DNA of 64,000 bases from an uncultured Victivallales bacterium (lineage in GTDB: Bacteria > Verrucomicrobiota > Kiritimatiellia > UBA8416 > JABMPJ01): contig CAYFPQ010000002.1 in NCBI GenBank assembly GCA_964345005.1, positions 48,219 to 112,218 on the forward strand. Reading direction: 5' to 3'. The notes beneath the pieces were generated by a model that had not been told where the DNA came from, ran no database searches, and saw only the letters and a list, made by a program, of their open reading frames with translations. Positions 4,874-17,505 of the stretch are shown piece after piece (the stretch's first letter is position 1; the number at the start of each line of letters is the position of its first letter). Made by a program: the position numbers and the translations under genes.

Positions 4874-6181
4874 CTAAGCTTCCTCGAACCGGTTTCGCCA
4901 CGACCACAGGCCGATTGCGGGGTTCGAAATATAGAAAATCTCCTCGCCGTCATCCATGACATTGATACCGTCCTTCAGGTTCGCAGGATCGTAGCGTTCG
5001 AGCATGGCGTCGAGCGGTGCATAGTTGAAATTGACACTGCGGATCTCGTCTTCGCTTAGGTGACCGGGGCAGTACGTGATGGTGAAGCGCCCCTCTGAAG
5101 ACCCGTGAATGAGATGTGCGGCAGCGCTCAGGTTGTTACCCAGTTCAGGATGCTCCTTTAGAGCGGCCAGCACGGCTGGGGTTCCAATGTACCCATAGGC
5201 GCGAATCAGGCGGTCAATCTCCGCGTCCTCGCCAAACTCGCATACACCAGGCGCCAGCACAATCAACTCGCCATCGTCGGCAATGGCCATGCGCGTGCGA
5301 TAAACGCTCTTGTTGCCAAGCCAGGTGCTCTTGAATTCAGCGGGATCGAGATAGACCACCACTTTCTTGAGTGGCTCCTCTACCATTTCGAAATTCACCT
5401 TGAGCGAGAGCTCGGCGGCACGGTCGAAGCACTCGCGGCCGTCCCCGATGTAGAGCCCGCGGAGCTGGAGCTCCCCGGCATCGTCTCGCCCGATAACCGT
5501 CTGCACGTAAACAATGGGCAGGTCGGATGCAAAATGCTCACAGGCGTAGTCCAGTACCCGCCGCACGGGCGTATCGGCCCGCCCCATCATCCGTTCCATG
5601 CCGTAGGCCGCACCCAGGAAGTGGCTCTTGTTGATCCCTTCGGGTCCGCCCGTGCCGACGAAGACGTTCTTGCTGTGATTTGCCATGCCGATCACTTCAT
5701 GCGGCACCACTTGGCCGATGGAAATGATAAGGTCATGACCGCCATCGACCAGCAGATGGTCGACCTGTGCAGGCCAAGCATAGTCTACAGCGCCTTCCGA
5801 CACTTCGCGAAGAAACTCGGCCGGCACTTCACCCAGCGTGACAACACCACTGCGCCAGTCGTGCTCGCGGAACCGGTCGTGCGGAACGCCAGGAAACATC
5901 TCGTCAAGTTGCCCGGCCGTCATGGGCGTATGGGTTCCCAGGGCCGGGAGCACATCGACAAGGCGATCGCCGTAGTAATCGAAGGCAAACCGTGTGAACA
6001 TGCCGGCTTGAGAGTGAAAACGGGTGAAATCAGGCGGAATTGCCAAGACGCGATCACGACGTCCGAGCTGCTCGAGTACGCCCACGAGCGCCGCACGTGC
6101 TTCTTCCGGTGCGATTACATCTGCTTCTGATCCACGTTCGAAATAGAGCATAGCGCTTTTTCCTGTCGCGAAAGAACGCAA
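4874..6181 (-). CDS. LarA-like (lactate racemase family / DUF2088) alpha-hydroxyacid racemase/epimerase homolog
   Basis: 435 aa, size and layout of LarA; segment VVPHEVIGMANHSKNVFVGTGGPEGINKSHF resembles the LarA His/Lys pincer-cofactor region; call is from memory of the family. Confidence 0.45.
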   Translation of the reverse strand: MRSFATGKSAMLYFERGSEADVIAPEEARAALVGVLEQLGRRDRVLAIPPDFTRFHSQAGMFTRFAFDYYGDRLVDVLPALGTHTPMTAGQLDEMFPGVPHDRFREHDWRSGVVTLGEVPAEFLREVSEGAVDYAWPAQVDHLLVDGGHDLIISIGQVVPHEVIGMANHSKNVFVGTGGPEGINKSHFLGAAYGMERMMGRADTPVRRVLDYACEHFASDLPIVYVQTVIGRDDAGELQLRGLYIGDGRECFDRAAELSLKVNFEMVEEPLKKVVVYLDPAEFKSTWLGNKSVYRTRMAIADDGELIVLAPGVCEFGEDAEIDRLIRAYGYIGTPAVLAALKEHPELGNNLSAAAHLIHGSSEGRFTITYCPGHLSEDEIRSVNFNYAPLDAMLERYDPANLKDGINVMDDGEEIFYISNPAIGLWSWRNRFEEA

Positions 6182-6260
6182 TAAAACACAAAAACGAACA
6201 AGATGTCACGAAAAATCTACGCGTTATTATGTGGAAAGCCGCATGTTCAGCGTTGCTAAC

Positions 6261-6340
6261 GGCCCGCTCGGATAGCGGGCCCTTTACCATGGATCGCGCA
6301 ATACCGTGGGTTGGGTAGGGCCCGTTCTCCGAACGGGCCG
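6261..6340. repeat. REP-like palindromic element, two inverted units (copy A)
   Basis: unit1 ggcccgctcggatagcgggccctttacca (6261-6289) and inverted unit2 tgggtagggcccgttctccgaacgggccg (6312-6340); each unit is itself a hairpin; same family at 17521, 32415 and 62102. Confidence 0.65.
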
Positions 6341-6464
6341 CAGCACAGGCGCGCCCGCTGAGCGAACCTGCCAAAATGACACAGTGAATCGGCTTGCGGC
6401 GGCGCGTGGTCCGTGGTAGGGTTGTGTCATATTGTCGCATTAGAAAGGCAAAGGATTTAGAAAA

Positions 6465-7691
6465 ATGCCAATGAAATCTGGATTTGTTGAACGATTGATC
6501 GAGCGACTGGATCGTTTGGACCCGGAGAGTTTGCAGTCTCATTTTCTTCGCTTGGCGCAGGATCGAGGGCTCCTGGAAATGGTATTCCAATCAATCCAGG
6601 AGGGTGTCGTGGTGGTGGACAGCAGCGGGAACTTGGACTACGCGAATCGTGCGGCGGAACAGTTTCTGGGATTTGCGCTGGAATCTGAGCAGGGAAAACC
6701 GGTTTCGCGCTACTTGGGTGAGATCGACTGGGAGCGCATCTTGAGCTTGGACACGCAGGAGTGGTCAAGACTCGTCACGCGCGAGATCGAGATCACGTAT
6801 CCGGTGCAGCGTTTCTTAACATTCTACGTCGTGCCGATGCACCAGGATTCACTTGAGAGTACCGGTGCATTGGTGATTCTCCGGGACGTTACGCATGAGC
6901 GTGAGGAGGAAGCGACAACGCTGGAATCCGAGCGCATCAATGCCGTGAAGCTGCTGGCCGCTGGTGTCGCGCACGAGATTGGCAATCCGCTCAACGCACT
7001 GAACATCCACCTTCAACTGTTGGACCGCGAGATAGGGAAGATGCGGAAGGATGCGGATGGGGGAGCGTCGGCTGACTCCGAGGACTTGGGCTACCTGCAT
7101 GAGTTGACGGAGGTGGCACGTACGGAGGTGGGGCGGCTCGATCAGGTGATCACGCAATTCCTACAGGCCATCCGGCCAACCAGGCCGGATTTGGCTTCCG
7201 CACAGATCGAGATCCTGTTGGAGGATACGCTGACGTTGCTCAAGCAGGAGGTGCAGAACCGCAGCATCAGTATCGAGATTGATCGGCCCGACAAGTTGCC
7301 GCGGATCAGGGTCGATAGCGGCCAGATCAAACAGGTCTTCTTCAACGTCATCCGTAACGCGTTCCAAGCCATGCCGGATGGTGGGCAGCTCAAGATCGTA
7401 CTTTTCACAACGGACGAGTATCTCGGCATATCGTTCCGGGATTCGGGCGTGGGAATTCCGCCCGAGGAGTTCAGCCGCATCTTCGAACCCTATCACACGA
7501 CCAAGGCCAGCGGTTCGGGGCTGGGGCTGATGATTGTGCAGCGTATCGTGCAGGACCATGGCGGGCAGATCGAGGTGATGAGCAAGGCGGATGCCGGAAC
7601 CGGGTTCACCGTGTTGCTGCCGCTGGTTGAACGGAGCATCCGGTTGTTGGACGCGAAGGCGAGCAGGAAGAGAGGGAAGCGCAATGAGTGA
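6465..7691 (+). CDS. sensor histidine kinase (PAS + HisKA + HATPase_c), NtrB-like
   Basis: H-box AAGVAHEIGNPLNALNIHLQLL; N/G boxes (NVIRNAFQAM, DSGVGIP, GSGLGL); PAS-like N-terminus; 8-nt overlap with the downstream sigma-54 regulator. Confidence 0.88.
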   Translation: MPMKSGFVERLIERLDRLDPESLQSHFLRLAQDRGLLEMVFQSIQEGVVVVDSSGNLDYANRAAEQFLGFALESEQGKPVSRYLGEIDWERILSLDTQEWSRLVTREIEITYPVQRFLTFYVVPMHQDSLESTGALVILRDVTHEREEEATTLESERINAVKLLAAGVAHEIGNPLNALNIHLQLLDREIGKMRKDADGGASADSEDLGYLHELTEVARTEVGRLDQVITQFLQAIRPTRPDLASAQIEILLEDTLTLLKQEVQNRSISIEIDRPDKLPRIRVDSGQIKQVFFNVIRNAFQAMPDGGQLKIVLFTTDEYLGISFRDSGVGIPPEEFSRIFEPYHTTKASGSGLGLMIVQRIVQDHGGQIEVMSKADAGTGFTVLLPLVERSIRLLDAKASRKRGKRNE

Positions 7692-9096
7692 TATGAAACC
7701 TTCCATCTTGATTGTTGATGACGAGAAGAACACGCGCGATGGCCTCGAGCGGGCGTTGCGTCGGGAGTACCGGGTTAGAACGGCCGAAAGTGGCGATAGC
7801 GCACTCGAGCTGATGGCTAAGGATCCGCCCGATATCCTGCTGACGGATCTGCGCATGCCGGGTATAGACGGGCTGACACTGGTCCAGCGCGCCCTGGCAC
7901 GGCATCCGGCCCTCGTTTGCCTGTTACTCACCGCATACGGTTCGGTTGAAACGGCCGTCGAAGCGATGAAGCGCGGCGCGCACGACTACCTGACCAAGCC
8001 GGTGAATCTTGATGAGCTGGAGCTGGTGCTCAAGCGGGCATTACGATCGCAAAGGGTGGAGTCCGAGAACGCGAATCTGCATGAGCAGCTCGACGACAAG
8101 TACGGGTTGGAGAATATCATCGGGAATTCTCCTGCCATGTCTCAGCTCTTCGATACGATTCGCCAGGCAGCGCCGACGCAGGCTACCGTCCTCGTGCAGG
8201 GCGAGAGCGGCACGGGCAAGGAGCTGGTCGCGCATGCCGTGCATCGTCTCAGCGATCGGGCGCGTGGTCCGTTCGTCGCCGTTCATTGTGCGGCACTGTC
8301 GATGAATCTGCTCGAAAGCGAACTGTTCGGGCACGAGAAAGGGGCGTTCACCGGTGCCATGTCGAGGCGCAAGGGGCGTTTTGAGTTGGCAGATGGTGGA
8401 ACACTCTTTCTCGATGAGATATCTGAGATCGATGCATCGATCCAGGTGAAGCTGCTACGCGTGTTGGAGGAGCGCAAGTTCGAGCGGGTAGGGGGCGATG
8501 AAACGGTCGAGACCGATATCCGCCTCGTCACGGCAACGAACAAAGACCTGAAGCAGTTGGTCAAGGAAGGCAAGTTCAGGGAGGATCTCTTTTTCCGGCT
8601 CGACGTGGTCAATATCACGCTGCCGCCTCTGCGGGAGAGGGTGGGGGACGTGCCCATGTTGTGCGGCCACTTCCTGGAAGCGTTCAGCGTCAGTAACAAC
8701 CGCAAGATCAACGGCATCACACCGGATGCCGTTACCATGCTCTCGAACTACAACTGGCCGGGCAACGTGCGTGAACTCCGCAACACGATCGAGAAGATGG
8801 TGGTGCTCGGTCGCGGCGAGCGGCTGACAGCTCGCGATATTCCTGCGAACATCCGCGAAGCCGTGAAGGCCGCCGGGCCGGCCGTTGTACTCGCGACCGG
8901 CGACACGATGCACGGCGGCGACTCGCTTGCTGCCACAGAGCAGCGCATGATCATGGCCACGCTCAAGAAGCTGAACGGCAATCGAACGAAGGCCGCCGAA
9001 GAACTTGGCATCAGCCGGCGTACGCTCCACCGTAAGTTGAAGCAGTACGAAGAAGCTTCAGCGGCATCTTTCGATAGCGCGGAGGCAAGTGACTAG
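7684..9096 (+). CDS. sigma-54-dependent response regulator (NtrC/AtoC family)
   Basis: receiver domain (ILIVDDE...D...TDLRMPGIDG), AAA+ sigma-54 activator core (GESGTGKE, GAFTGA, ESELFGHEKGAFTGA) and C-terminal Fis-type HTH; start at MSDMKPS (ORF 7591 has an N-terminal extension). Confidence 0.92.
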   Translation: MSDMKPSILIVDDEKNTRDGLERALRREYRVRTAESGDSALELMAKDPPDILLTDLRMPGIDGLTLVQRALARHPALVCLLLTAYGSVETAVEAMKRGAHDYLTKPVNLDELELVLKRALRSQRVESENANLHEQLDDKYGLENIIGNSPAMSQLFDTIRQAAPTQATVLVQGESGTGKELVAHAVHRLSDRARGPFVAVHCAALSMNLLESELFGHEKGAFTGAMSRRKGRFELADGGTLFLDEISEIDASIQVKLLRVLEERKFERVGGDETVETDIRLVTATNKDLKQLVKEGKFREDLFFRLDVVNITLPPLRERVGDVPMLCGHFLEAFSVSNNRKINGITPDAVTMLSNYNWPGNVRELRNTIEKMVVLGRGERLTARDIPANIREAVKAAGPAVVLATGDTMHGGDSLAATEQRMIMATLKKLNGNRTKAAEELGISRRTLHRKLKQYEEASAASFDSAEASD

Positions 9097-9339: not shown

Positions 9340-9966
9340 CTACGCGGCCAGCGACTTGGCCAGGTCGGCTGCCGAAGCGGCATCCGGCGCGTAGCCATCG
9401 GCACCGATCTCGTCGCAGAACGCCTGCGTTACCGGGGCGCCACCGATCATGACTTTGGTTTCTACGTCTGAGGCCTTCACCGCATCCACGACCGCTTTCA
9501 TGTTGGTCATGGTTGTCGTCAGCAGAGCGGATACACCGATCACGGACGCGTTGTTCTCCTGGGCGGCGTCGACGAACTTTTGCGGTTCGCAGTCGATACC
9601 CACGTCGACAACCTTGAACCCGGCGCCTTCGAGCATCATGCAGACAAGATTCTTGCCGATGTCGTGCAGGTCGCCCTTAACGGTGCCAACCACGGCCACA
9701 CCGACCGGCTCCACGCCGCTCTCTGCGAGCTTCGGCTGGAGGATCTCCATGCCGGACTTCATCGCACGGGCAGCGATCAGTACTTCGGGAACGTAGACCT
9801 CGTTCTTCTTGAAGCGCTCACCGATCACGCTCATGCCGGCCAGCAAACCGTCATTCAGCACTTCAGCCGGAGCGGTGCCGCCGTCCAGCGCCTGCACAAC
9901 CAACTCCTTCACATCGTTAGCCTTACCCTTCATCAGGTTTTCGGCAATGTCCTGCAATACACTCAT
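9340..9966 (-). CDS. cobalamin-binding corrinoid protein (B12-binding_2 helical cap + B12-binding Rossmann domain)
   Basis: DxHxxG motif (GDLHDIGKNLV), ...GVSAL...GG B12-binding signature; 208 aa, typical of methyltransferase-cognate corrinoid proteins. Confidence 0.8.
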   Translation of the reverse strand: MSVLQDIAENLMKGKANDVKELVVQALDGGTAPAEVLNDGLLAGMSVIGERFKKNEVYVPEVLIAARAMKSGMEILQPKLAESGVEPVGVAVVGTVKGDLHDIGKNLVCMMLEGAGFKVVDVGIDCEPQKFVDAAQENNASVIGVSALLTTTMTNMKAVVDAVKASDVETKVMIGGAPVTQAFCDEIGADGYAPDAASAADLAKSLAA

Positions 9967-10155
9967 GGTACTCCTTTATGTTGATTGGAAATCCCCGCGA
10001 TACCGAATCGCTTTCCCCCTTTAGAAAGGCCCCATACTAGGAGTATGCACGATCAGTTCCTAGTGGCTTTTTTGCGATAAATATAACGATATTGTTGAAA
10101 CCGAGGGAAAAGGTGTCTAAATTTCCATATTTCTGCATGAGAGAGGGCTTCCGAT

Positions 10156-11358
10156 ATGGCGATTTTGTCGAAACGTCTCTTAGAGTCAGTTGGTCGGGAT
10201 TATCGGGCACAGCATGGGCTGGATGTCAGGGCCATGGATATTGCCGGCAAAGTCAGCGGCAACGGCAACGACCCTCTGGGGCAACTCGACAATGCGCCAC
10301 GCCGCCGCAACTACGCCCTACAGCAGAGCATCAACCAGGGCGTGCCCCACATTTATGAATTTGCACCAGGCATTCTCTCGTGGGTGGTGGCACTCGAGGA
10401 CCGGCGCCGAATCTATGGCGGTCTGATTGGCGGAGAGGTTCTTACCCTCGCGGAGGGACAATCGGCTAAACCGACACGGCGATACCTCACGCAGCACGGG
10501 CTGACGGCAGCGGCGGCGGACGAGCTGATGGAGGTGCTTCCTGTGTGGGATGCGTCACAGGCTGACTCGGCGGCAGATGACCTGAAGGAGATGTTCTACC
10601 AGAGAAGCGGATGGCGCTCGGAATTGTTGGATGAGAACCGTCTGCGACGCGGACAGATGGAGCAGCTTAACCGGGCGATCGAAGACCAGCGCCGCGAGGG
10701 GCAACCAGCGCTGTATGCGTTCGAGAAGGAGCGCATGCTGTTGGCAACCATCCGGACGGGCGATCGCCCCGGGGCACGCAGCCTCCTCAACGAGATGCTG
10801 GCGATCATCTACATGTCATCGCCCAAACTGGTGGTGCTTCGTGCACGTGCAGTCGAGCTGCTGAGCTGTCTCACCCGGGCGGCGATCGAGGATAACCCGT
10901 TACTCGAGCCGATGATTGAAAGAAACCACGGGTGGACCGAGAAGCTGGTCGCGGCGCGGAGTTTCGAGGCGTTGTCGCAGCGGCTCATGACGGCGCTGGA
11001 TGACTTCATCGATGCGATCTACCTGCAGGGCGTCAACCGGTCGAATGTCAAGGTGTCGCAGGCCATTGACTACATCGGGCGGCACTACACCAGGCCGATT
11101 TCGCTACGTGATGTGGCTGAGGAGGTGGGGCTTAGTTCGTGTCGGCTGGCTCACCTGGTGAAGACGTATACGGGGCGGACAGTCATGCAGCTCATTTACC
11201 AGATGCGGGTGACGCATGCGCAGAAGCTGCTGGTCAGCACATCCCAGAGCTGTACGGATATCGCGTACGCAGTGGGTTTCAACGACCAGAGCTACTTCAT
11301 CAAGCACTTCAAGCGCCTAACCGGCACAACCCCCATGCGTTTCCGTCGTGCCGGGTAG
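10156..11358 (+). CDS. AraC-family transcriptional regulator with about 290-aa non-cupin N-terminal domain (paralog 1)
   Basis: C-terminal AraC HTH (ISLRDVAEEVGLSSCRLAHLVK...YFIKHFKRLTGTTPMRFRR); N-terminal domain homologous to that of 15102..16319. Confidence 0.85.
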   Translation: MAILSKRLLESVGRDYRAQHGLDVRAMDIAGKVSGNGNDPLGQLDNAPRRRNYALQQSINQGVPHIYEFAPGILSWVVALEDRRRIYGGLIGGEVLTLAEGQSAKPTRRYLTQHGLTAAAADELMEVLPVWDASQADSAADDLKEMFYQRSGWRSELLDENRLRRGQMEQLNRAIEDQRREGQPALYAFEKERMLLATIRTGDRPGARSLLNEMLAIIYMSSPKLVVLRARAVELLSCLTRAAIEDNPLLEPMIERNHGWTEKLVAARSFEALSQRLMTALDDFIDAIYLQGVNRSNVKVSQAIDYIGRHYTRPISLRDVAEEVGLSSCRLAHLVKTYTGRTVMQLIYQMRVTHAQKLLVSTSQSCTDIAYAVGFNDQSYFIKHFKRLTGTTPMRFRRAG

Positions 11359-11439
11359 GGGGTGGATACTACTGCCCTGGATGGAGACTGTGAGCGTGGA
11401 GGGACTTCCGACCTCTGACTTTCGACTCCCGGCCTCCGG

Positions 11440-12267
11440 CTAGTTAGCCATCGCCAGCGTCCGGGCGGTGGAGTCGTTCATCGCGATGACGATCTCGCCG
11501 GCACCCATGCGGCCGAAGTGCGGTGTCTGCCAGCCCGAGGTCTCGCGGCGAACGCGGTTGCGAACATAGGCCGCCAGCTTCAGAGCCGAAACACCGCCGT
11601 CCCTCCCCCCGGAGCGGTGGAAGTAGTTGAGGATGTAGCGAGTGAACAGACCATGACCATCGGCTTCGAACGCGCGATCCAACGCACCGCCGGCGGTCAG
11701 CATCTGTATACTCCGGGAGGAGGTCCAGTCGGTAGAATCAGTAGCAACAGAAATTCCGAAACCCGAGTAGCAGGAATCCATGATGAAGAAGCTGTGACGG
11801 TTGGGCATGGTTTCAACAGCCTCGCGCAGCGCCTGCATCGATAGGCCGTCATCGGCCTCGTGCCCCGCGCGAGTTTCGACCGGAAGCAGGTAACCCATCT
11901 GGTTGCCGCTGGAATCGGCACCGGTCCAGCCGTGGCCCGCGTAGAAGAAGACGAACAGGTCGTTGTCGCCGATCTCATCGCCGACTTCCTTGAGAGCGCC
12001 CATGATATCCTCGCGGCCGGCCTCTTCGTCGGTGAGGAGTATAACCTTGTCGAACCCGTAGCTGTGGAAAACCTGCGACATCTCAACAGCGTCGTTGACC
12101 GAGCAGGAGAGAGGGGCGTAGGAGGGATAGTCGTTGATGCCGACGCAAACGGCGATCCGGCGACTGTAGGCCTCGCTCGCAGCCTGACCCATCACGGTGG
12201 CGGCCAGAATGAATGTTGCGGTGGCTGCCAGCGTCCGCCCGATCTTGCTGTTGTATTTGAGTGTCAT
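11440..12267 (-). CDS. secreted caspase-domain (peptidase C14) protein
   Basis: catalytic dyad context FYAGHGW (His) and IMDSCYSG (Cys); signal peptide; start moved to MTLKYN (12267), 8 nt after GGGAG; ORF extends to 12282. Confidence 0.8.
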   Translation of the reverse strand: MTLKYNSKIGRTLAATATFILAATVMGQAASEAYSRRIAVCVGINDYPSYAPLSCSVNDAVEMSQVFHSYGFDKVILLTDEEAGREDIMGALKEVGDEIGDNDLFVFFYAGHGWTGADSSGNQMGYLLPVETRAGHEADDGLSMQALREAVETMPNRHSFFIMDSCYSGFGISVATDSTDWTSSRSIQMLTAGGALDRAFEADGHGLFTRYILNYFHRSGGRDGGVSALKLAAYVRNRVRRETSGWQTPHFGRMGAGEIVIAMNDSTARTLAMAN

Positions 12268-12303
12268 CCTTTTTACTCCCACTGTCGCTCGTGCGGCTGT
12301 ATA

Positions 12304-12321
12304 TCGCAGTGGGCGTGCCAG
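12304..12321 (-). promoter_or_regulatory. predicted sigma-54 (-24/-12) promoter for the caspase gene
   Basis: minus-strand CTGGCACGCCCACTGCGA: GG and GC spaced exactly as in consensus TGGCAC-N5-TTGC (one mismatch in -12 box), about 35 nt upstream of start 12267 and directly downstream of a sigma-54 activator gene. Confidence 0.5.
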
Positions 12322-12430
12322 GATGACTTAGAGTTCTATAACCCGTTCCTTATAAAGTAATTATAAAAAAAGACGCCACGGAGAACCGAGGCGCCAGGCA
12401 TGTGAAAAACCGGTACAATGTCAAAAAATG

Positions 12431-13864
12431 TTACACAGCGCTTTCCTCCTCCGCGCGTATGTTCTTAAGGTGTCTGTTCAGGGTCTGACGGGTGATCCCA
12501 AGCAGCTGGGAAGCCATGGTTTGGTTGCCGTCGGTACGGCGCAGGGCCTCCTCGATCAGGAGTCGTTCGGCCTGCCGGATCGAGGGCAGGGGCTGTTCGG
12601 GACTGAGAAAATCGGGTGCCGGTGCGGGGGTGCTGGGGACTTCGGGCAGAGAGCCCTGTTCGCGTTTGATGGCCTCGCGGAACGTGTTCATAGAGAGTAC
12701 GCCGCCCTTGTGAATGCTGACGGCATCGTAGCACATCGCTTCCAGCTCTCGGATATTGCCTGGGAAGGAGTAGGTGGAAAGCAATGTTACGAGTTCAGGA
12801 GGCGGCGTGGGCTTCTTCTTGCTCATCTCGGACGCCGACCGGGCAAGAAAATGATCCAGTAGCAGAGAAAGATCGCCGAGGCGCTCACGAAGCGGAGGCA
12901 CGTTGACGTGGTGAGAGCGCAGGCGGAAGTAAAGGTCCTCGCGGAAGTCGCCGGATCGTTGCAGGCTCTGCAGGTCCCGGTTGGTGGCCACTACGATCCG
13001 CGCGTTGGTCCGCTTCGGGCTGTCAGACCCCAGCGCGAGATACTCTCGCTCCTGCACGAGGCGCAGCAGCTTAACCTGGGACATACTGTTCAAGTCGCCG
13101 ATCTCATCCAGAAAAAGCGTTCCGCCTTCGGCGCGTTCGATCAGGCCTTTGCGTACATCGACGGCGCCCGTGAAGGCGCCTTTGACGTGGCCGAAGAGGG
13201 TATCGGAGAACACGTTGTCATCCAGCCCGGCGATGTTGACCGGAATAAACTCACCCTCGCGTCCACTGGCCTCGTGAATGGCTTTGGCAATAAGTTCTTT
13301 TCCAACGCCTGTTTCACCGGTTACCAGGATGGGTTGAGGCGTACCGGCGATGGCTTCGATGTACTGGAAGAGCGCGCGCATGTTGGCGTCGCTCGTGATG
13401 AGGTTACCGAACGCGTCCGGCTGCATCAGCTCCGTGGATAGCAGCTGGCGGGTGAGGAGGGCATTTTCGCGCCGCATATCGCGTACATCGAGTGCGCGTC
13501 GAAGCCCTGTAAGGAGATGCTCTTCCTTCACGGGCTTTACCATGTAGTCGAACGCCCCGGCCCGCATGCACTTGACCGCGGTATCGACTTCGTCAACTCC
13601 GGTCACAACAATAACGGGCAAGTCCGGGCTGCGCTGTACGATCATGGGTAGCACGTCGCGACCGGAGAGTCGCGGCATGTTCAGGTCGAGCAGCACAGCA
13701 TCGAACTCGTGCTCCTTCATGATGGCTTCGACATCTGCCCCGTCTACGCATGTGATGACATTGGTGATGCCATCGGCGCGGAGCGTGTAGACATAATTAC
13801 GCAGCAGATCCGCGTCATCGTCGACCAGTAGAACGGGATGTACCGGAAAAGCGGGTTTGTTCAT
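12431..13864 (-). CDS. sigma-54-dependent response regulator (NtrC family)
   Basis: receiver domain (VLLVDDD...DLNMPRLSG), GETGVGKE Walker A, GAFTGA motif, C-terminal HTH (QTMASQLLGITRQTLNRHLK). Confidence 0.92.
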   Translation of the reverse strand: MNKPAFPVHPVLLVDDDADLLRNYVYTLRADGITNVITCVDGADVEAIMKEHEFDAVLLDLNMPRLSGRDVLPMIVQRSPDLPVIVVTGVDEVDTAVKCMRAGAFDYMVKPVKEEHLLTGLRRALDVRDMRRENALLTRQLLSTELMQPDAFGNLITSDANMRALFQYIEAIAGTPQPILVTGETGVGKELIAKAIHEASGREGEFIPVNIAGLDDNVFSDTLFGHVKGAFTGAVDVRKGLIERAEGGTLFLDEIGDLNSMSQVKLLRLVQEREYLALGSDSPKRTNARIVVATNRDLQSLQRSGDFREDLYFRLRSHHVNVPPLRERLGDLSLLLDHFLARSASEMSKKKPTPPPELVTLLSTYSFPGNIRELEAMCYDAVSIHKGGVLSMNTFREAIKREQGSLPEVPSTPAPAPDFLSPEQPLPSIRQAERLLIEEALRRTDGNQTMASQLLGITRQTLNRHLKNIRAEEESAV

Positions 13865-15060
13865 GCTGCTGTCTCCTCGCTATCTCTGGGTGCCGGGAGG
13901 GTCAGTGTAACCAGTGTGCCATGGCCGCCGGTCGAGCTGAATACGAGCGCACCACCGTGATTCTCGGCAATCTGCCGCGAAATCGACAGCCCGAGCCCGG
14001 TACCACCCGTATCGTGCTTAGTTGTGAAGAAGGGATCGGTAACCTGCGGCAGCGACTCCGGCGGAATACCCTCGCCCTCGTCCTGCACCGTAATGTACAC
14101 CTCGTGTGCAGCCGGGCTATAGGCCGTTGACAACGTAATTCCGCAGTCCCGATTCGGAAGGGCCTGGCAGGCATTGCTGAGCAAGTTGATAACCACCTGC
14201 TCGATACGACGGGCCGTACCCCTGACAGAGGGCAGATCATCGGCGCATTTCAGCTTGAAGTTGTGCGTGGCCTTACGAATGGTTACACCCATCAAGTTGG
14301 CGGCGCTCTGCACGATAGCGTTGACGTCAAACAGGTCCAGCACGACCCCATCATCCCTGCGGGCATAGCACTTCAGGTCGGTAACCAGTCGATTGATCCG
14401 CTCCGCCGCACGGTAGCAGGATGCCACCATCTCCGGAATGTCTTCACGGATCTCGCTGTAGCTGCCGATACTCAAGTCGAAATCGCCTTCCTTCTCCTTG
14501 CGTTCGTCGAGGATGGGTCTCAGGTCTTCGACGATGCGCTGTAGTGTCTTCAGGCTGAGCAACATCACGTTGTTCGGATTGCTGACCTCGTGCGCCACAC
14601 CGGAAACCAGTGTGCCAAGCGCGGCGAGCTTCTGCGCCTGTACGAGCTGGGCTTCAGCACGCTTCTGCTCGGTAATGTCCTGCCGAGTGACGATGGCCCC
14701 TTGCGTGAACGGGGCGATCGTGAACGAAAAGATATGTCCCCCGGAGCGGACATCGGAGACCTCGCGCACAATGTTCAGATCGAGCGCCTTCTTCAGCTCG
14801 CCCTTCATGATCAGGTCACAATCCGAATCGCCGGAAAAAAGTGACTTGCCCAAGTCGGGGAGAGGATCATGGGCGTGGCGGCGGGCCAGGTTGCTCTTCA
14901 CGACCCTGCCCTCGCGATCGACAATTGTGATGGCGGACGGGTTGTGCTGGAAGAGCGCAAAATTGAACTCCTCCTTTTCGTGGCACTCACGCAGGACCCT
15001 GCCTAGATCAAGCGTCTCCGCGGTAGTGGCGTTATCGTTCTTTTCCGTCATGACCAACAC
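13861..15060 (-). CDS. sensor histidine kinase with PAS domain
   Basis: H-box VSGVAHEVSNPNNVM, HATPase_c N/G boxes (INLLSNACQAL, DEGEGIP, GTGLGLSI); 4-nt overlap with the RR gene. Confidence 0.88.
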   Translation of the reverse strand: MLVMTEKNDNATTAETLDLGRVLRECHEKEEFNFALFQHNPSAITIVDREGRVVKSNLARRHAHDPLPDLGKSLFSGDSDCDLIMKGELKKALDLNIVREVSDVRSGGHIFSFTIAPFTQGAIVTRQDITEQKRAEAQLVQAQKLAALGTLVSGVAHEVSNPNNVMLLSLKTLQRIVEDLRPILDERKEKEGDFDLSIGSYSEIREDIPEMVASCYRAAERINRLVTDLKCYARRDDGVVLDLFDVNAIVQSAANLMGVTIRKATHNFKLKCADDLPSVRGTARRIEQVVINLLSNACQALPNRDCGITLSTAYSPAAHEVYITVQDEGEGIPPESLPQVTDPFFTTKHDTGGTGLGLSISRQIAENHGGALVFSSTGGHGTLVTLTLPAPRDSEETAA

Positions 15061-15101
15061 TCCGTGTTCGGGATTGAAACATACTACCGAGTCGATTGGA
15101 T

Positions 15102-16319
15102 CTATGCAATCCCTCGTCGTTCACGCCGGTATTTTGCCGGCGTGGTTCCGGTCATCTCTCTGAACTGGCGCGTGAAGAAGCTTTGGTCGGAGAACCCGAC
15201 CTCGTATGCGATCTCGGCACAGGTCAGCGAGGACTCCTCAAGGAGATGGCGTGCCCTTTCGGTGCGGAGCCGTTTGACGTGCTGCAGAATGGTTCGGCCG
15301 GTGACGTCCTTGACCATGTGCGCGATGCGGAACGTGCTGAGACCTACGTGCTCGGCCACATCATCAAGGCGCAGCTCTTCGGTGTAGTGTTCGGCAATAT
15401 AGTCGAGCGCCTTGCGAACCTTCTTGTTGGTACGTCCATAGCCCTGCTCGAAGATGCTGTCCATGAAATCGTCCAGTGCCTGTCGCACGACTTTGCAGAG
15501 CGCTTCGAATCCCTCCGTGTTGAATACTTGCTCCATCCACTTCTGCTGCCGCTCGAGCAGGGGCTCGAGCAGGGGGCTGTCTTCAACCGCTGCACGTACC
15601 AGATAGCCCATCATCTCGATAATGCGCGCACGGATTACTGCCTCGCGCGGGGAATAGAGATAGATGGCGGCGAGCATGGTGTTCAACATGCTGCGGGCGC
15701 CCGCCCGGTTGCCGACACGAATCAGCGAGAGCAGGATGCGCTCCTCTTCCAAGGGGTACGCACGGTCCGGCTGGCGCTTGCGCTCGTGGATTACCTCCGC
15801 AATCTGTCGCTGCTGCAGGGCGTCGGTGCGGTTGCGTGTCAGAAGGGCGGGGTCCCAGCCGCTGAGCTGATAGAAGGATTCGTACAGGCTGGCGGCGGCC
15901 TCATGCACACGCGGCTGTGGCCAGAAAGGAATCTTGCCGACATAGGCCGCGGCCGACTTTCGGCCGACTCCGGCCGACACGATGAAATTAACCAACTCGG
16001 TTGTGTCGGTGACATCGCCCTCGATGCGCACCTCGCCGCCGGTAAGCCCGCCCTCGACGGACTCCTCGTCCACCAGTGGTATAACCCAGGTCATCAACCC
16101 CGGCGCCATAAAGAGCGAGTAAGGTTCGCCCCAACGCACCGCTTCCTGGAGCGCGTGAGCGCGGGCGCGGCAGAAGATGGCGTTGTTGTGAAGGGCGGAG
16201 CTGTGTTCGCGGTCGGTAATGGAACCGTTCCCGGCGATCGGCAGGCAGGTCAGGCCATACTCATTTCGGTACGCCCGTCGCAGCTGCGTCATCATGTTGG
16301 CGGAGAGCCGTGAAGCCAT
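15102..16319 (-). CDS. AraC-family transcriptional regulator with non-cupin N-terminal domain (paralog 2)
   Basis: C-terminal AraC HTH (LRLDDVAEHVGLSTFRIAHMVK...FFTRQFREMTGTTPAKYRR); N-terminus homologous to 10156..11358; 42 nt upstream of the HK gene on the same strand. Confidence 0.85.
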   Translation of the reverse strand: MASRLSANMMTQLRRAYRNEYGLTCLPIAGNGSITDREHSSALHNNAIFCRARAHALQEAVRWGEPYSLFMAPGLMTWVIPLVDEESVEGGLTGGEVRIEGDVTDTTELVNFIVSAGVGRKSAAAYVGKIPFWPQPRVHEAAASLYESFYQLSGWDPALLTRNRTDALQQRQIAEVIHERKRQPDRAYPLEEERILLSLIRVGNRAGARSMLNTMLAAIYLYSPREAVIRARIIEMMGYLVRAAVEDSPLLEPLLERQQKWMEQVFNTEGFEALCKVVRQALDDFMDSIFEQGYGRTNKKVRKALDYIAEHYTEELRLDDVAEHVGLSTFRIAHMVKDVTGRTILQHVKRLRTERARHLLEESSLTCAEIAYEVGFSDQSFFTRQFREMTGTTPAKYRRERRGIA

Positions 16320-16428
16320 AGCAAGAAAATCCTATTTCCTGTTCAGGCGCACCGTAGCACGTGGACAGACACAAGTACATACTCCAAAATACTCGCGCCA
16401 CTGCGCCCGACCCGCTAAGGTTCCGCCC

Positions 16429-17505
16429 ATGACCATTGCCGATGTCAGAGGCATGCGACGCGCCCTCCTGCGTTGGTTCGATCGAAACCGGCGTCGCATG
16501 CCGTGGCGCGATGATCCGCAGCCGTACAAGGTGTGGATCAGCGAGGTCATGCTGCAGCAGACCCAAGTGACCACCGTGATGCCCTATTTCGAGCGGTTCA
16601 TCAGGCGGTTCCCGACAGTCTCCGACCTTGCCGCCGCCGACCTGCAGGAGGTCCTCGAGGTGTGGCAAGGCCTCGGTTACTACTCCCGTGCGCGCAACCT
16701 CCACAAGGCGGCTCGCGTTGTGATGGACGTGCATGACGGCAACCTGCCACGGCTGGCACGCGAATGGCAGGCCCTGCCTGGCATTGGGCCCTACGCGGCT
16801 GGCGCCATTGCAAGTATCGCGTTCAACGAAGCCGTACCAGCGGTGGACGGCAACGTAGTGCGAGTGTTCACCCGCCTGCTTGGCATCCGCAAGGATAGTA
16901 CAAAGTCCGCTGTCCGGCGCGCCCTGACGGAGCAGGTCGCTCGGATGATGGCACCGCGACGTGCCGGTGACTTCAACCAGGCGGTTATGGAGTTGGGTGC
17001 ACTCGTCTGTAAGCCGCGCAGCCCGGATTGCTCGAGCTGCCCCCTTCAGCGCTGGTGCATAGCGTATGCGAAAGGGCTGACTGCCCGCATACCCTATCGC
17101 CCACGGCGCAAGCCTGTCCCGCACATTGACGTAGCCGCCTGCGTGATTCGGCGTGGCGATCGCGTACTGATTGCGCGTCGGTGCGCGGACCAGATGTTGG
17201 GTGGGCTGTGGGAGTTTCCGGGCGGGAAGCAGGAGACGGGCGAGACAATCGAGGAGACCGCGGTTCGTGAAATCGCCGAGGAGCTCGGCATTGAAATCCG
17301 TGTGGTACAGAAGCTTGGCGCCATCCAACACGCGTTCAGCCATTTCAAGATGACGCTGCATGTCTTCGAATGTCGACCGACACGTGGGCGTGCCCGTGCG
17401 GTTACAGTGGATGCTGTCAAGTGGGTTTCCATCGCCGACCTTGGCGGCTACCCGTTCCCGGCCGCGGACCGGAAAGTGGTTGCGTGGCTGGCCAAGTCAT
17501 CATGA
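16429..17505 (+). CDS. mutY: A/G-specific adenine DNA glycosylase MutY (HhH-GPD + FeS + NUDIX-like C-terminal domain)
   Basis: MLQQTQV...VMPYFERF, HhH-GPD, Cys cluster CKPRSPDCSSCPLQRWC, C-terminal MutT-like domain; start at MTIADV (ORF 16219 has an N-terminal extension overlapping the divergent gene). Confidence 0.9.
   Translation: MTIADVRGMRRALLRWFDRNRRRMPWRDDPQPYKVWISEVMLQQTQVTTVMPYFERFIRRFPTVSDLAAADLQEVLEVWQGLGYYSRARNLHKAARVVMDVHDGNLPRLAREWQALPGIGPYAAGAIASIAFNEAVPAVDGNVVRVFTRLLGIRKDSTKSAVRRALTEQVARMMAPRRAGDFNQAVMELGALVCKPRSPDCSSCPLQRWCIAYAKGLTARIPYRPRRKPVPHIDVAACVIRRGDRVLIARRCADQMLGGLWEFPGGKQETGETIEETAVREIAEELGIEIRVVQKLGAIQHAFSHFKMTLHVFECRPTRGRARAVTVDAVKWVSIADLGGYPFPAADRKVVAWLAKSS

Follow-up and report, generated by a model that had tools for sequence, protein, structure and literature searches.

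A predicted sigma-54 promoter may place a putatively exported C14 peptidase under an NtrC-type two-component system in a Kiritimatiellia bacterium

Organization of the locus

The window, i.e., the whole stretch of 64,000 nucleotides analysed here (uncultured Victivallales bacterium, contig CAYFPQ010000002.1, positions 48,219 to 112,218), carries on its minus strand a gene for a Peptidase_C14 protein of 275 amino acids (11440-12267). Upstream of it, on the same strand, are the genes for a soluble histidine kinase (HK, 13861-15051, with an alternative GTG start at 15060; Pfam HATPase_c and a weak HisKA) and for an NtrC-family response regulator (RR1, 12431-13864; Response_reg, Sigma54_activat, AAA_lid_14 and HTH_8). 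The present work deals with the probable control of the peptidase gene by HK and RR1 through a sigma-54 promoter, as had been proposed in an earlier note made from the sequence alone (hereafter the original prediction). The homologs found are named after Kiritimatiellia or Kiritimatiellae metagenome-assembled genomes (MAGs).

The HK stop and the RR1 start overlap by 4 nt. The spacer between RR1 and the peptidase gene has 163 nt and 42-47% GC, vs. about 60% in the flanks. The following features were found on the minus strand in this region, from the RR1 side to the peptidase side: (i) a predicted upstream activating sequence (UAS), which is a double dyad (12401-12434); (ii) an intrinsic terminator of the HK-RR1 operon (12365-12395); (iii) an AT-rich tract, TTTTTTTATAATTACTTTATAA (12345-12371); (iv) a predicted sigma-54 promoter, TGGCACgcccaCTGCg (12305-12320); (v) the ribosome-binding site GGGAG (12280-12276), which precedes the peptidase ATG at 12267. 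The gene downstream of the peptidase gene is convergent to it, which makes the latter monocistronic.

The gene upstream of HK codes for AraC1, a PocR-AraC regulator (15102-16319, minus strand; Pfam HTH_18, HTH_AraC and PocR). Between AraC1 and HK there are 41 nt, or 50 nt when the HK ATG at 15051 is taken. This ATG is the likelier start, because the HK orthologs have 396 amino acids (396-399 for the window HK). On the other side of the peptidase gene are found AraC2, a PocR-AraC paralog (10156-11358, plus strand), the divergent gene for a corrinoid (B12-binding) protein (9340-9966, minus strand; Pfam B12-binding_2 and B12-binding), and a second PAS-type kinase and sigma-54 activator pair, i.e., HK2 (6465-7691) and RR2 (probable start 7684, up to 9096). 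The four open reading frames and the 4-nt overlap of the original prediction are borne out; the AraC-HK gap, given there as 42 nt, has to be corrected.

Sigma-54 promoter before the peptidase gene

The motif TGGCACgcccaCTGC (12320-12306, minus strand) has the GG and GC doublets of a -24/-12 element with the exact N10 spacing. The wider element, CTGGCACGCCCACTGCGA (12321-12304), lies 110 nt past the RR1 stop. The C of the -12 part is at 12306, i.e., 38 nt before the ATG at 12267, so that the transcription start site of the peptidase gene is predicted near 12294, with a leader of about 27 nt. The -24/-12 motif, the distance of about 110 nt and the GGGAG-preceded start, all put forward originally, are present in the sequence.

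By itself the promoter motif is not significant: TGGCAC-N5-TTGC with at most 2 mismatches has 67 matches in the window vs. 71 expected in shuffled sequences, i.e., there is no enrichment. In a scan of 128 kb with a sigma-54 position weight matrix (PWM), which had been suggested as a check, the site before the peptidase gene ranks second and is the best intergenic site (13.2-14.6 bits). The top match in the window, TGGCACGCGAATGGCA (16754-16769, plus strand, 13.9 bits), lies inside a MutY-like coding region (16219-17505); chance is its most likely origin, and a high score is not evidence by itself. The significance of the promoter comes from its conservation in orthologous loci and not from the motif match.

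The orthologs of the peptidase (alignment A2, 17 sequences) were collected together with their loci. This gave 14 non-redundant intact orthologous loci (44-100% amino acid identity), from at least 8 lineages with unalignable upstream DNA. A uniform region of 400 nt before the catalytic domain was scanned on both strands. The choice of the first ATG as start obscured the promoter in two loci (L004 and L006; the loci of relatives are designated by such numbers), and the fixed 400-nt scan recovers both.

A sense-strand sigma-54 site of at least 11.1 bits is found in 14 of the 14 loci and one of at least 13.4 bits in 13 of them, with no antisense site of comparable strength. The pooled background in the family loci is 0.049 sites per 400 nt. 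Among distant C14 homologs of other phyla, a sigma-54 site was found in 5 of 143. The promoter of the family is located 145-213 nt before the catalytic domain. In the window clade (81-89% amino acid identity), the whole spacer is alignable and the -24/-12 element is invariant. In the orthologs at 44-62% identity, with unalignable upstream DNA and unrelated neighbours, the element is kept at the equivalent place, i.e., TGGCATcgtgcCTGC (L006), TGGTACgaggcTTGC (L008), TGGCACatgcgTTGC (L091), TGGCATatccgTTGC (L170), TGGCACatcccCTGC (L171), TGGTACggttgGTGC (L172) and TGGCACcgagaTTGC (L173). A consensus scan of the minus strand between 11000 and 17000 found no sigma-70-like -35/-10 pair. The sigma-54 promoter of the peptidase gene is, on this comparative evidence, very probably real.

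In L170 (9970-10003) and L091 (375-410), the annotated ATG is only about 16 nt past the -12 element. The mRNA would be nearly leaderless there if translation did not in fact begin at a GTG or ATG further downstream.

Activator site, terminator and AT-rich tract

When the upstream regions are anchored, ungapped, on the TGG of the -24 element, a second conserved block is seen. This predicted UAS consists of two adjacent dyads resembling GTAAC-N5/6-GTTAC. In the window, where the dyads are imperfect, it reads GTAACAttttttGACA (12434-12419)-tt-GTACCggtttttCACA (12416-12401), the first dyad overlapping the RR1 stop TAA (12433-12431). In L008 it reads GTAACaaattGTTAC-cct-GTAACatcatGTTAC, with perfect dyads, and in L173 GTAACagtttttTAC-accGTAACgtattGTTAC. 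The distance from GTAAC to TGG is 114 nt in the window, L008, L091, L171 and L172, 113 nt in L170 and 111 nt in L173. L006 has a weaker copy about 102 nt upstream.

A PWM of the UAS was derived from seven loci, the locus under test being left out (for the window and L004, both were left out). In the scan of the window (64 kb, both strands), the UAS is first with 26.7 bits, and the next unrelated site has 10.0 bits. In each of the seven loci behind the PWM, the top match is this element, read in one orientation or the opposite; in L172 the best score belongs to the reverse-strand register, and the top match of L170 is offset by 1 nt. L173, which was found from the response regulator side and is outside the training set, scores 39.4 bits. 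Activators of the NtrC type classically bind paired palindromic sites located 100-140 bp before a sigma-54 promoter, and the double dyad of the window lies at an enhancer-type distance (dyads about 80-150 bp from the promoter). The double dyad 12401-12434 is thus the predicted activator site.

Between the UAS and the promoter, the terminator (12395-12365) consists of the hairpin GGCGCCuCGG-uucu-CCGuGGCGUC followed by U7. Its folding energy is -16.8 kcal/mol (z=-3.8), and none of 200 shuffled sequences is equally stable. The hairpin is kept in 7 members of the clade, with changes on both sides in 3 pairs. The sigma-70/terminator consensus scan missed this structure (stem mismatch), which was recovered by folding and covariation. 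No terminator-like structure was found by folding after the peptidase gene.

The AT-rich tract lies midway between the UAS and the promoter. At positions -55 to -40 from TGG, the AT fraction (mean of 8 lineages) is 0.75-0.79, vs. about 0.4 in the flanking columns. The tract may be an intrinsic bend or an IHF-type (integration host factor) site. Matches to the IHF consensus (WATCAANNNNTTR) have 1 mismatch in the window and 3 in the other lineages, and only an AT-rich tract is claimed here. The original prediction regarded this AT-rich region as the place of enhancer or IHF-type sites. A conserved AT-rich tract does exist, but in the window clade much of the stretch is the HK-RR1 terminator, the enhancer-like sites lie further upstream, over the RR1 stop, and the IHF matches are weak.

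Histidine kinase and response regulator

RR1 contains Response_reg (9e-27), Sigma54_activat (5e-56), AAA_lid_14 and HTH_8 domains (Pfam), and the motifs GETGVGKE, GAFTGA and LFLDEIG are readable in its translation. By its sequence, it can be classified as an NtrC-family enhancer-binding response regulator, i.e., a receiver domain (REC), an AAA+ domain and a Fis-type helix-turn-helix (HTH). The RR1 orthologs beside the peptidase gene have 62-66% identity to RR1 vs. 36-39% to RR2 paralogs, and they have in common the HTH sequence GNQTMAxxLLGITRQTLNRHLK. RR2 and RR1 are 38% identical.

HK contains HATPase_c (E=5e-27) and a weak HisKA (24.6 bits vs. a cut-off of 26.9), and the H-box AHEVSNP can be recognised. 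Its sequence shows no hydrophobic segment. For PAS_4, the match covers profile positions 2-110 of 110 with E=0.007-0.009, i.e., 17 bits vs. a cut-off of 23. The PAS label originally given to HK is thus sub-threshold in the window protein; on the other hand, the N-termini of 7 of 7 orthologous kinases, as well as the HK2 paralog, match PAS_4 at E<=0.1. The match of HK2 to PAS_4 is clear.

The best NCBIfam matches of RR1 are AtoC (359 vs. a cut-off of 714), NtrC (325 vs. 559) and ZraR (270 vs. 760). Those of HK are AtoS (194 bits vs. 646) and ZraS, also below its cut-off. All scores being far below the curated cut-offs, the AtoC/AtoS, NtrC and ZraR/ZraS equivalogs were rejected, and RR1 is classed from its sequence as an unnamed member of the wider NtrC family.

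The HK2/RR2 pair is conserved in L002, L011, L012, L014, L170 and L174. A sigma-54-like site of 12.6 bits (7581-7596, minus strand) lies antisense between HK2 and RR2, and is probably due to chance.

Linkage and joint loss of the genes

Three gene orders were found: (i) AraC1, HK and RR1, followed by the peptidase gene in the same direction (window clade); (ii) HK and RR1 followed by the peptidase gene, without AraC1 (L171, and L172 with a hybrid-type kinase); (iii) HK and RR1 facing a convergent peptidase gene, itself preceded by AraC2 (L170 and L173). The outer flanking genes differ between the lineages that share the RR1-peptidase adjacency, which has therefore survived rearrangement. Where the peptidase gene is convergent, UAS and promoter are found before it and not at the 3' end of RR1.

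A degenerate variant (L176/L177) was found on 4 contigs from at least two different samples. A deletion of about 1.7 kb, with the microhomology 'ST' at the junction, has joined RR1 (residues 1-143) in frame to the peptidase (residues 178-275) in the fusion protein P0023. The deletion removes the AAA+ and HTH domains of RR1, the promoter and both catalytic residues (L176 4946-6723, and the equivalent region in L177). The frame of HK is broken into three, with additional divergence of the sequence, yet AraC1, AraC2, the corrinoid protein, RR2 and HK2 have each remained intact. In other words, a single lineage shows joint decay of HK, RR1 and the peptidase.

From the linkage and the joint decay, RR1 is probably the cognate activator of the peptidase promoter.

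In L174, a weak match to a Y1 (IS200/IS605-type) transposase (9784-10803) is located just downstream of RR1, i.e., at the usual position of the peptidase gene.

The C14 peptidase

The protein matches Peptidase_C14 (PF00656) with 64.1 bits (gathering score 21.4, E=2e-17). The His/Cys dyad motifs noticed originally are there: His112 (YAGHG) and Cys166 (DSCYSG) are invariant in the 17 orthologs, as are Asp59 (xNDA) and Asp164 (DxC). In metacaspases, the acidic S1 pocket is lined by Asp residues that align with Asp59 and Asp164 (AtMC4 alignment). These S1-pocket residues being those of metacaspases, the enzyme probably cleaves after Arg or Lys.

When the family profile is compared with the PDB, metacaspase-4, the MALT1 paracaspase, yeast Mca1 and Geobacter GSU0716 are found at 5e-10 to 5e-9 (5e-10 to 2e-9 for the first three), vs. 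0.8 for caspase-1. The AlphaFold2 model has a mean confidence (pLDDT) of 65.7, with a good core. The Foldseek ranking agrees with the profile search, and the identity to solved structures is 14-22%. By these comparisons, the peptidase probably belongs to the metacaspase/orthocaspase-like (C14B-type) proteins and not to the true caspases. The earlier caspase label thus holds at the level of the C14 family (Pfam) and probably fails at that of the subclass, the closest structures not being caspases.

At 44% identity or more, the family is confined to Kiritimatiellia-type MAGs. It is not a member of NCBIfam NF047832 (caspase, EACC1-associated type), with a score of 68.8 vs. a cut-off of 140. No assignment to a defence system was retained, since PADLOC gave only a generic 'caspase' match and RtcR/PspF-like AAA+ matches.

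The N-terminus (residues 1 to about 29 or 31; 12267 to about 12175) is signal-peptide-like, as had been noticed originally; this is judged by a heuristic scan of features only. It has 3 Lys/Arg, the h-region ATATFILAATVM and possible cleavage sites after GQA (before AS) and after AAS (before EA). Among the aligned orthologs, an h-region is present in 16 of 17, preceded by Lys/Arg in 15 and followed by small-x-small sites in all 16. For P0018, the 17th, the start as annotated leaves such a hydrophobic segment out. On these features the peptidase is likely exported, a signal anchor being the alternative. Single-domain caspase homologs with an N-terminal transmembrane helix or signal peptide are a recognised prokaryotic architecture (PMC3501461).

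A tail ...(A/V)(L/V)AMA(N/R) is conserved at or near the C-terminus in 17 of 17 orthologs (11440-11460 in the window), after a variable linker of low confidence. A role as degron, as autoinhibitory tail or as sorting signal is conceivable.

Proposed mechanism and alternative explanations

The preferred reading, to which a probability of about 0.75 is given, is a two-component switch of the NtrB/NtrC type dedicated to a single gene, i.e., from HK to RR1, to the sigma-54 promoter and to an exported C14 peptidase. The soluble PAS-like HK would sense an intracellular cue and phosphorylate the receiver domain of RR1. Activated RR1 would assemble on the two dyads (12434-12401), about 114 nt upstream of the -24 element, and the intervening DNA would loop, possibly aided by the conserved AT-rich tract. 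The AAA+ domain of RR1, with its GAFTGA loop and ATP, would then open the closed complex of the sigma-54 holoenzyme at TGGCAC-N5-CTGC (12320-12306). Transcription from about 12294 would give a monocistronic mRNA with a leader of about 27 nt, insulated from HK-RR1 read-through by the intrinsic terminator. The predicted product is a cysteine peptidase of 275 amino acids, with a caspase fold and a Sec-type signal peptide, which would act outside the cytoplasm. In this chain, the domain content, the promoter and UAS with their conservation, the linkage and the co-loss are read directly from the sequences and their comparison; we infer the phosphotransfer, the binding of RR1 to the dyads, the sigma-54 dependence in vivo, the export, the P1 specificity and the physiological role. 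The core of the original prediction, i.e., that the two-component system drives the peptidase gene by a sigma-54 promoter, gains support from the conserved promoter, the UAS, the linkage and the co-decay. The parts around this core, i.e., the membership of AraC, the AT-rich/IHF interpretation and the PAS assignment (sub-threshold), are unsupported or weak.

Several points weigh against the preferred reading. The promoter is present in L006 (MAG GCA_046766155.1) and in L008 (MAG GCA_046766175.1), the latter with a perfect UAS as well, but neither locus has an RR1 within 8 kb. Conversely, the RR1-like genes of L174 and L175 (62-63% identity) have neither peptidase gene nor UAS within 8 kb; in the look-up of long contigs from the RR1 side, peptidase and UAS are missing in these 2 of 3. 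The linkage between RR1 and the peptidase is therefore frequent and not obligatory, and, the adjacency not being universal, the assignment of RR1 to the UAS rests on linkage. Since a single class supplied all loci, part of the linkage could be inherited synteny. Moreover, the sigma-54 PWM is approximate, being written after the published consensus; rpoN is not among the checked open reading frames of the window and is implied only by the two GAFTGA-bearing activators; the signal peptide comes from a heuristic scan; and the AlphaFold2 model is only moderate (pLDDT 65.7) and uninformative on the C-terminal tail.

The loci in which peptidase and RR1 are separated (L008, and L006 with its weaker UAS; L174 and L175 on the RR1 side), together with the presence of a second kinase-activator pair in the window, lead to the question of whether the promoter and the UAS, although real, answer to another enhancer-binding protein encoded elsewhere (e.g., RR2, 7684-9096), RR1 being a mere neighbour. 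This is unlikely, considering that RR1 orthologs adjoin the peptidase gene in three rearranged orders with differing outer flanks, that RR2 is absent near the peptidase gene in L004, L171 and L172, and that the recognition helix of RR1 and the UAS are conserved over an equal phylogenetic range. Furthermore, HK, RR1 and the peptidase decay jointly in L176, while RR2 and HK2 are intact there. The GTAAC/GTTAC units might also be bound by AraC1 or AraC2 (possibly with the corrinoid protein), acting through a sigma-70 promoter or modulating the sigma-54 one. The two units, spaced by 18 bp, can be read as a direct repeat, which is the usual form of AraC-family sites, and AraC2 directly precedes the peptidase gene, in the same orientation, in L170 and L173 and is adjacent to it in the window clade. 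Such a control by AraC proteins is nevertheless very unlikely: (i) no sigma-70-like promoter was found, and the near-consensus sigma-54 element, which is universally conserved, requires an AAA+ activator; (ii) in L171, UAS and promoter are present on a contig of 10.6 kb that has no AraC gene, and L008 has none within 8 kb; (iii) both AraC genes are intact where the peptidase is deleted.

A chance -24/-12 match, with expression by read-through from HK-RR1 or from an unrecognised promoter, would agree with the frequency of consensus matches in the window (67 vs. 71 in shuffles) and with the higher-scoring site inside MutY. The site is however present in 14 of 14 loci across unalignable upstream DNA, with no antisense counterpart and a chance of about 0.05 per lineage. 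The conserved terminator blocks read-through, which is in any case impossible where the gene is convergent to the response regulator (L170, L173) or unlinked (L006, L008). This explanation has hardly any probability left.

The dedicated two-component switch can be extended to a wider scheme, speculative and quite unlikely as a whole, in which a conserved cassette of five genes (for the corrinoid protein, PocR-AraC, the caspase, the enhancer-binding protein and HK) would have the exported orthocaspase as its effector, set off by a signal. The cassette is kept in Kiritimatiellia in spite of rearrangements, among them a reversal of the peptidase gene inside it. The protease would then be a tightly gated executioner in the envelope or outside the cell. 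If this were true, it might take part in regulated self-lysis, in cell-surface remodelling or in attack on neighbours, its induction might follow an intracellular cue, metabolic or cobalamin-related, and the AMA[N/R] tail might be a built-in degron or autoinhibitor. It would then be the first caspase homolog of bacteria for which an on-switch is defined.

Comparison with known systems

The predicted switch resembles NtrB/NtrC at glnAp2 by its soluble kinase of putative PAS type, its REC-AAA+(GAFTGA)-Fis-HTH regulator, and its two dyads about 100-140 bp upstream of TGGCAC-N5-TTGC, with presumed DNA looping. It differs by the half-sites (GTAAC/GTTAC vs. TGCACC/GGTGCA for NtrC), with about 18 bp between site centres, and by the target, i.e., a single gene for an exported peptidase and not nitrogen assimilation. 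Moreover, RR1 is not an NtrC equivalog (325 vs. 559).

AtoS/AtoC and ZraS/ZraR (HydH/HydG) of Enterobacteria are the best NCBIfam matches of HK and RR1. ZraSR controls the adjacent single gene for the periplasmic ZraP from a sigma-54 promoter. ZraSR-ZraP is thus the nearest analogy in logic, i.e., a two-component system with a sigma-54 activator for one adjacent envelope-protein gene. Unlike in these systems, the window HK has no transmembrane or periplasmic sensor, and the target is a peptidase and not a chaperone or a catabolic operon.

Orthocaspases (Microcystis MaOC1; Geobacter GSU0716, PDB 3BIJ) share with the window peptidase the caspase-hemoglobinase fold, the His-Cys dyad and Asp residues at the positions of the acidic S1 pocket of metacaspases. 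The window family differs by its low identity to solved structures (14-22%), by its own C-terminal AMA[N/R] tail and by its occurrence in Kiritimatiellia-type MAGs.

In the library searched, no paper was found that links sigma-54/RpoN or enhancer-binding proteins with an orthocaspase, metacaspase or caspase, and no paper on sigma-54 in Kiritimatiellae. A cross-phylum survey of sigma-54 regulons from 2025 does not mention caspases or peptidases.

Kiritimatiellia have few cultured representatives, and we know of no sigma-54 regulon characterised in them. Caspase homologs occur widely in bacteria, and we are aware of almost none with a known trigger, substrate or physiological role. The mechanism is canonical for the NtrC type; what is new and unusual is the target, in a clade that has been little studied, so that the value lies in target and clade and not in a new mechanism. 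A C14 family that is predicted to be exported and looks catalytically intact gains a predicted dedicated switch, i.e., an experimental handle with a testable on-switch, and a motif (GTAAC-N5-GTTAC) is defined as the predicted activator site of a Kiritimatiellia enhancer-binding protein.

AraC and corrinoid neighbours

AraC1 matches HTH_18 (2e-23) and PocR (1e-7); AraC2 matches HTH_18 (1e-23) and, below the cut-off, PocR (6e-4). The two are 42% identical. The PocR equivalog of NCBIfam was rejected (82 vs. a cut-off of 500), and the MtgC-like corrinoid model of NCBIfam is also below its cut-off.

AraC1 is confined to the window clade and is absent upstream of HK in L170, L171, L172 and L173. Among relatives, it lies at anything between about 50 and about 420 nt from HK. 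The inclusion of AraC in the module, as originally suggested, is not upheld, since the gene is clade-specific, variably spaced, and intact in L176 after the decay of HK, RR1 and the peptidase. Sigma-54 promoters require an AAA+ activator; an AraC protein cannot therefore substitute for RR1 and could at most modulate.

The pair formed by the corrinoid protein and AraC2 adjoins the peptidase gene in the window clade, L170 and L173, while L172 has the B12-binding protein alone. The corrinoid protein is 80-81% identical where the peptidase is 44-50% identical (overall range 80-92%). This high conservation may reflect function or inherited synteny. In L170 (5649-9844; the pair of L173 is at 10710-12773), the corrinoid/AraC2 pair is beside Pterin_bind and S-methyl_trans genes, a neighbourhood which resembles a split methionine-synthase-like methyltransferase system.

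Further sigma-54-like sites in relatives

In L006, a site of 16.2 bits, TGGCACGTAACGTGCA (7602-7617, minus strand), is located about 62 nt upstream of dnaK (5600-7540), which is followed by groES and groEL. It is nearly palindromic (GCACGT-T-ACGTGC), and could be a sigma-54 promoter or a heat-shock operator.

In L008, sigma-54-like sites of 16.1-16.2 bits (11829-11893 and 15557-15572) were found near genes for Robl_LC7/MglB-like and PatA_N/MshEN response-regulator proteins. These further strong sites suggest a sizeable sigma-54 regulon in these Kiritimatiellia.

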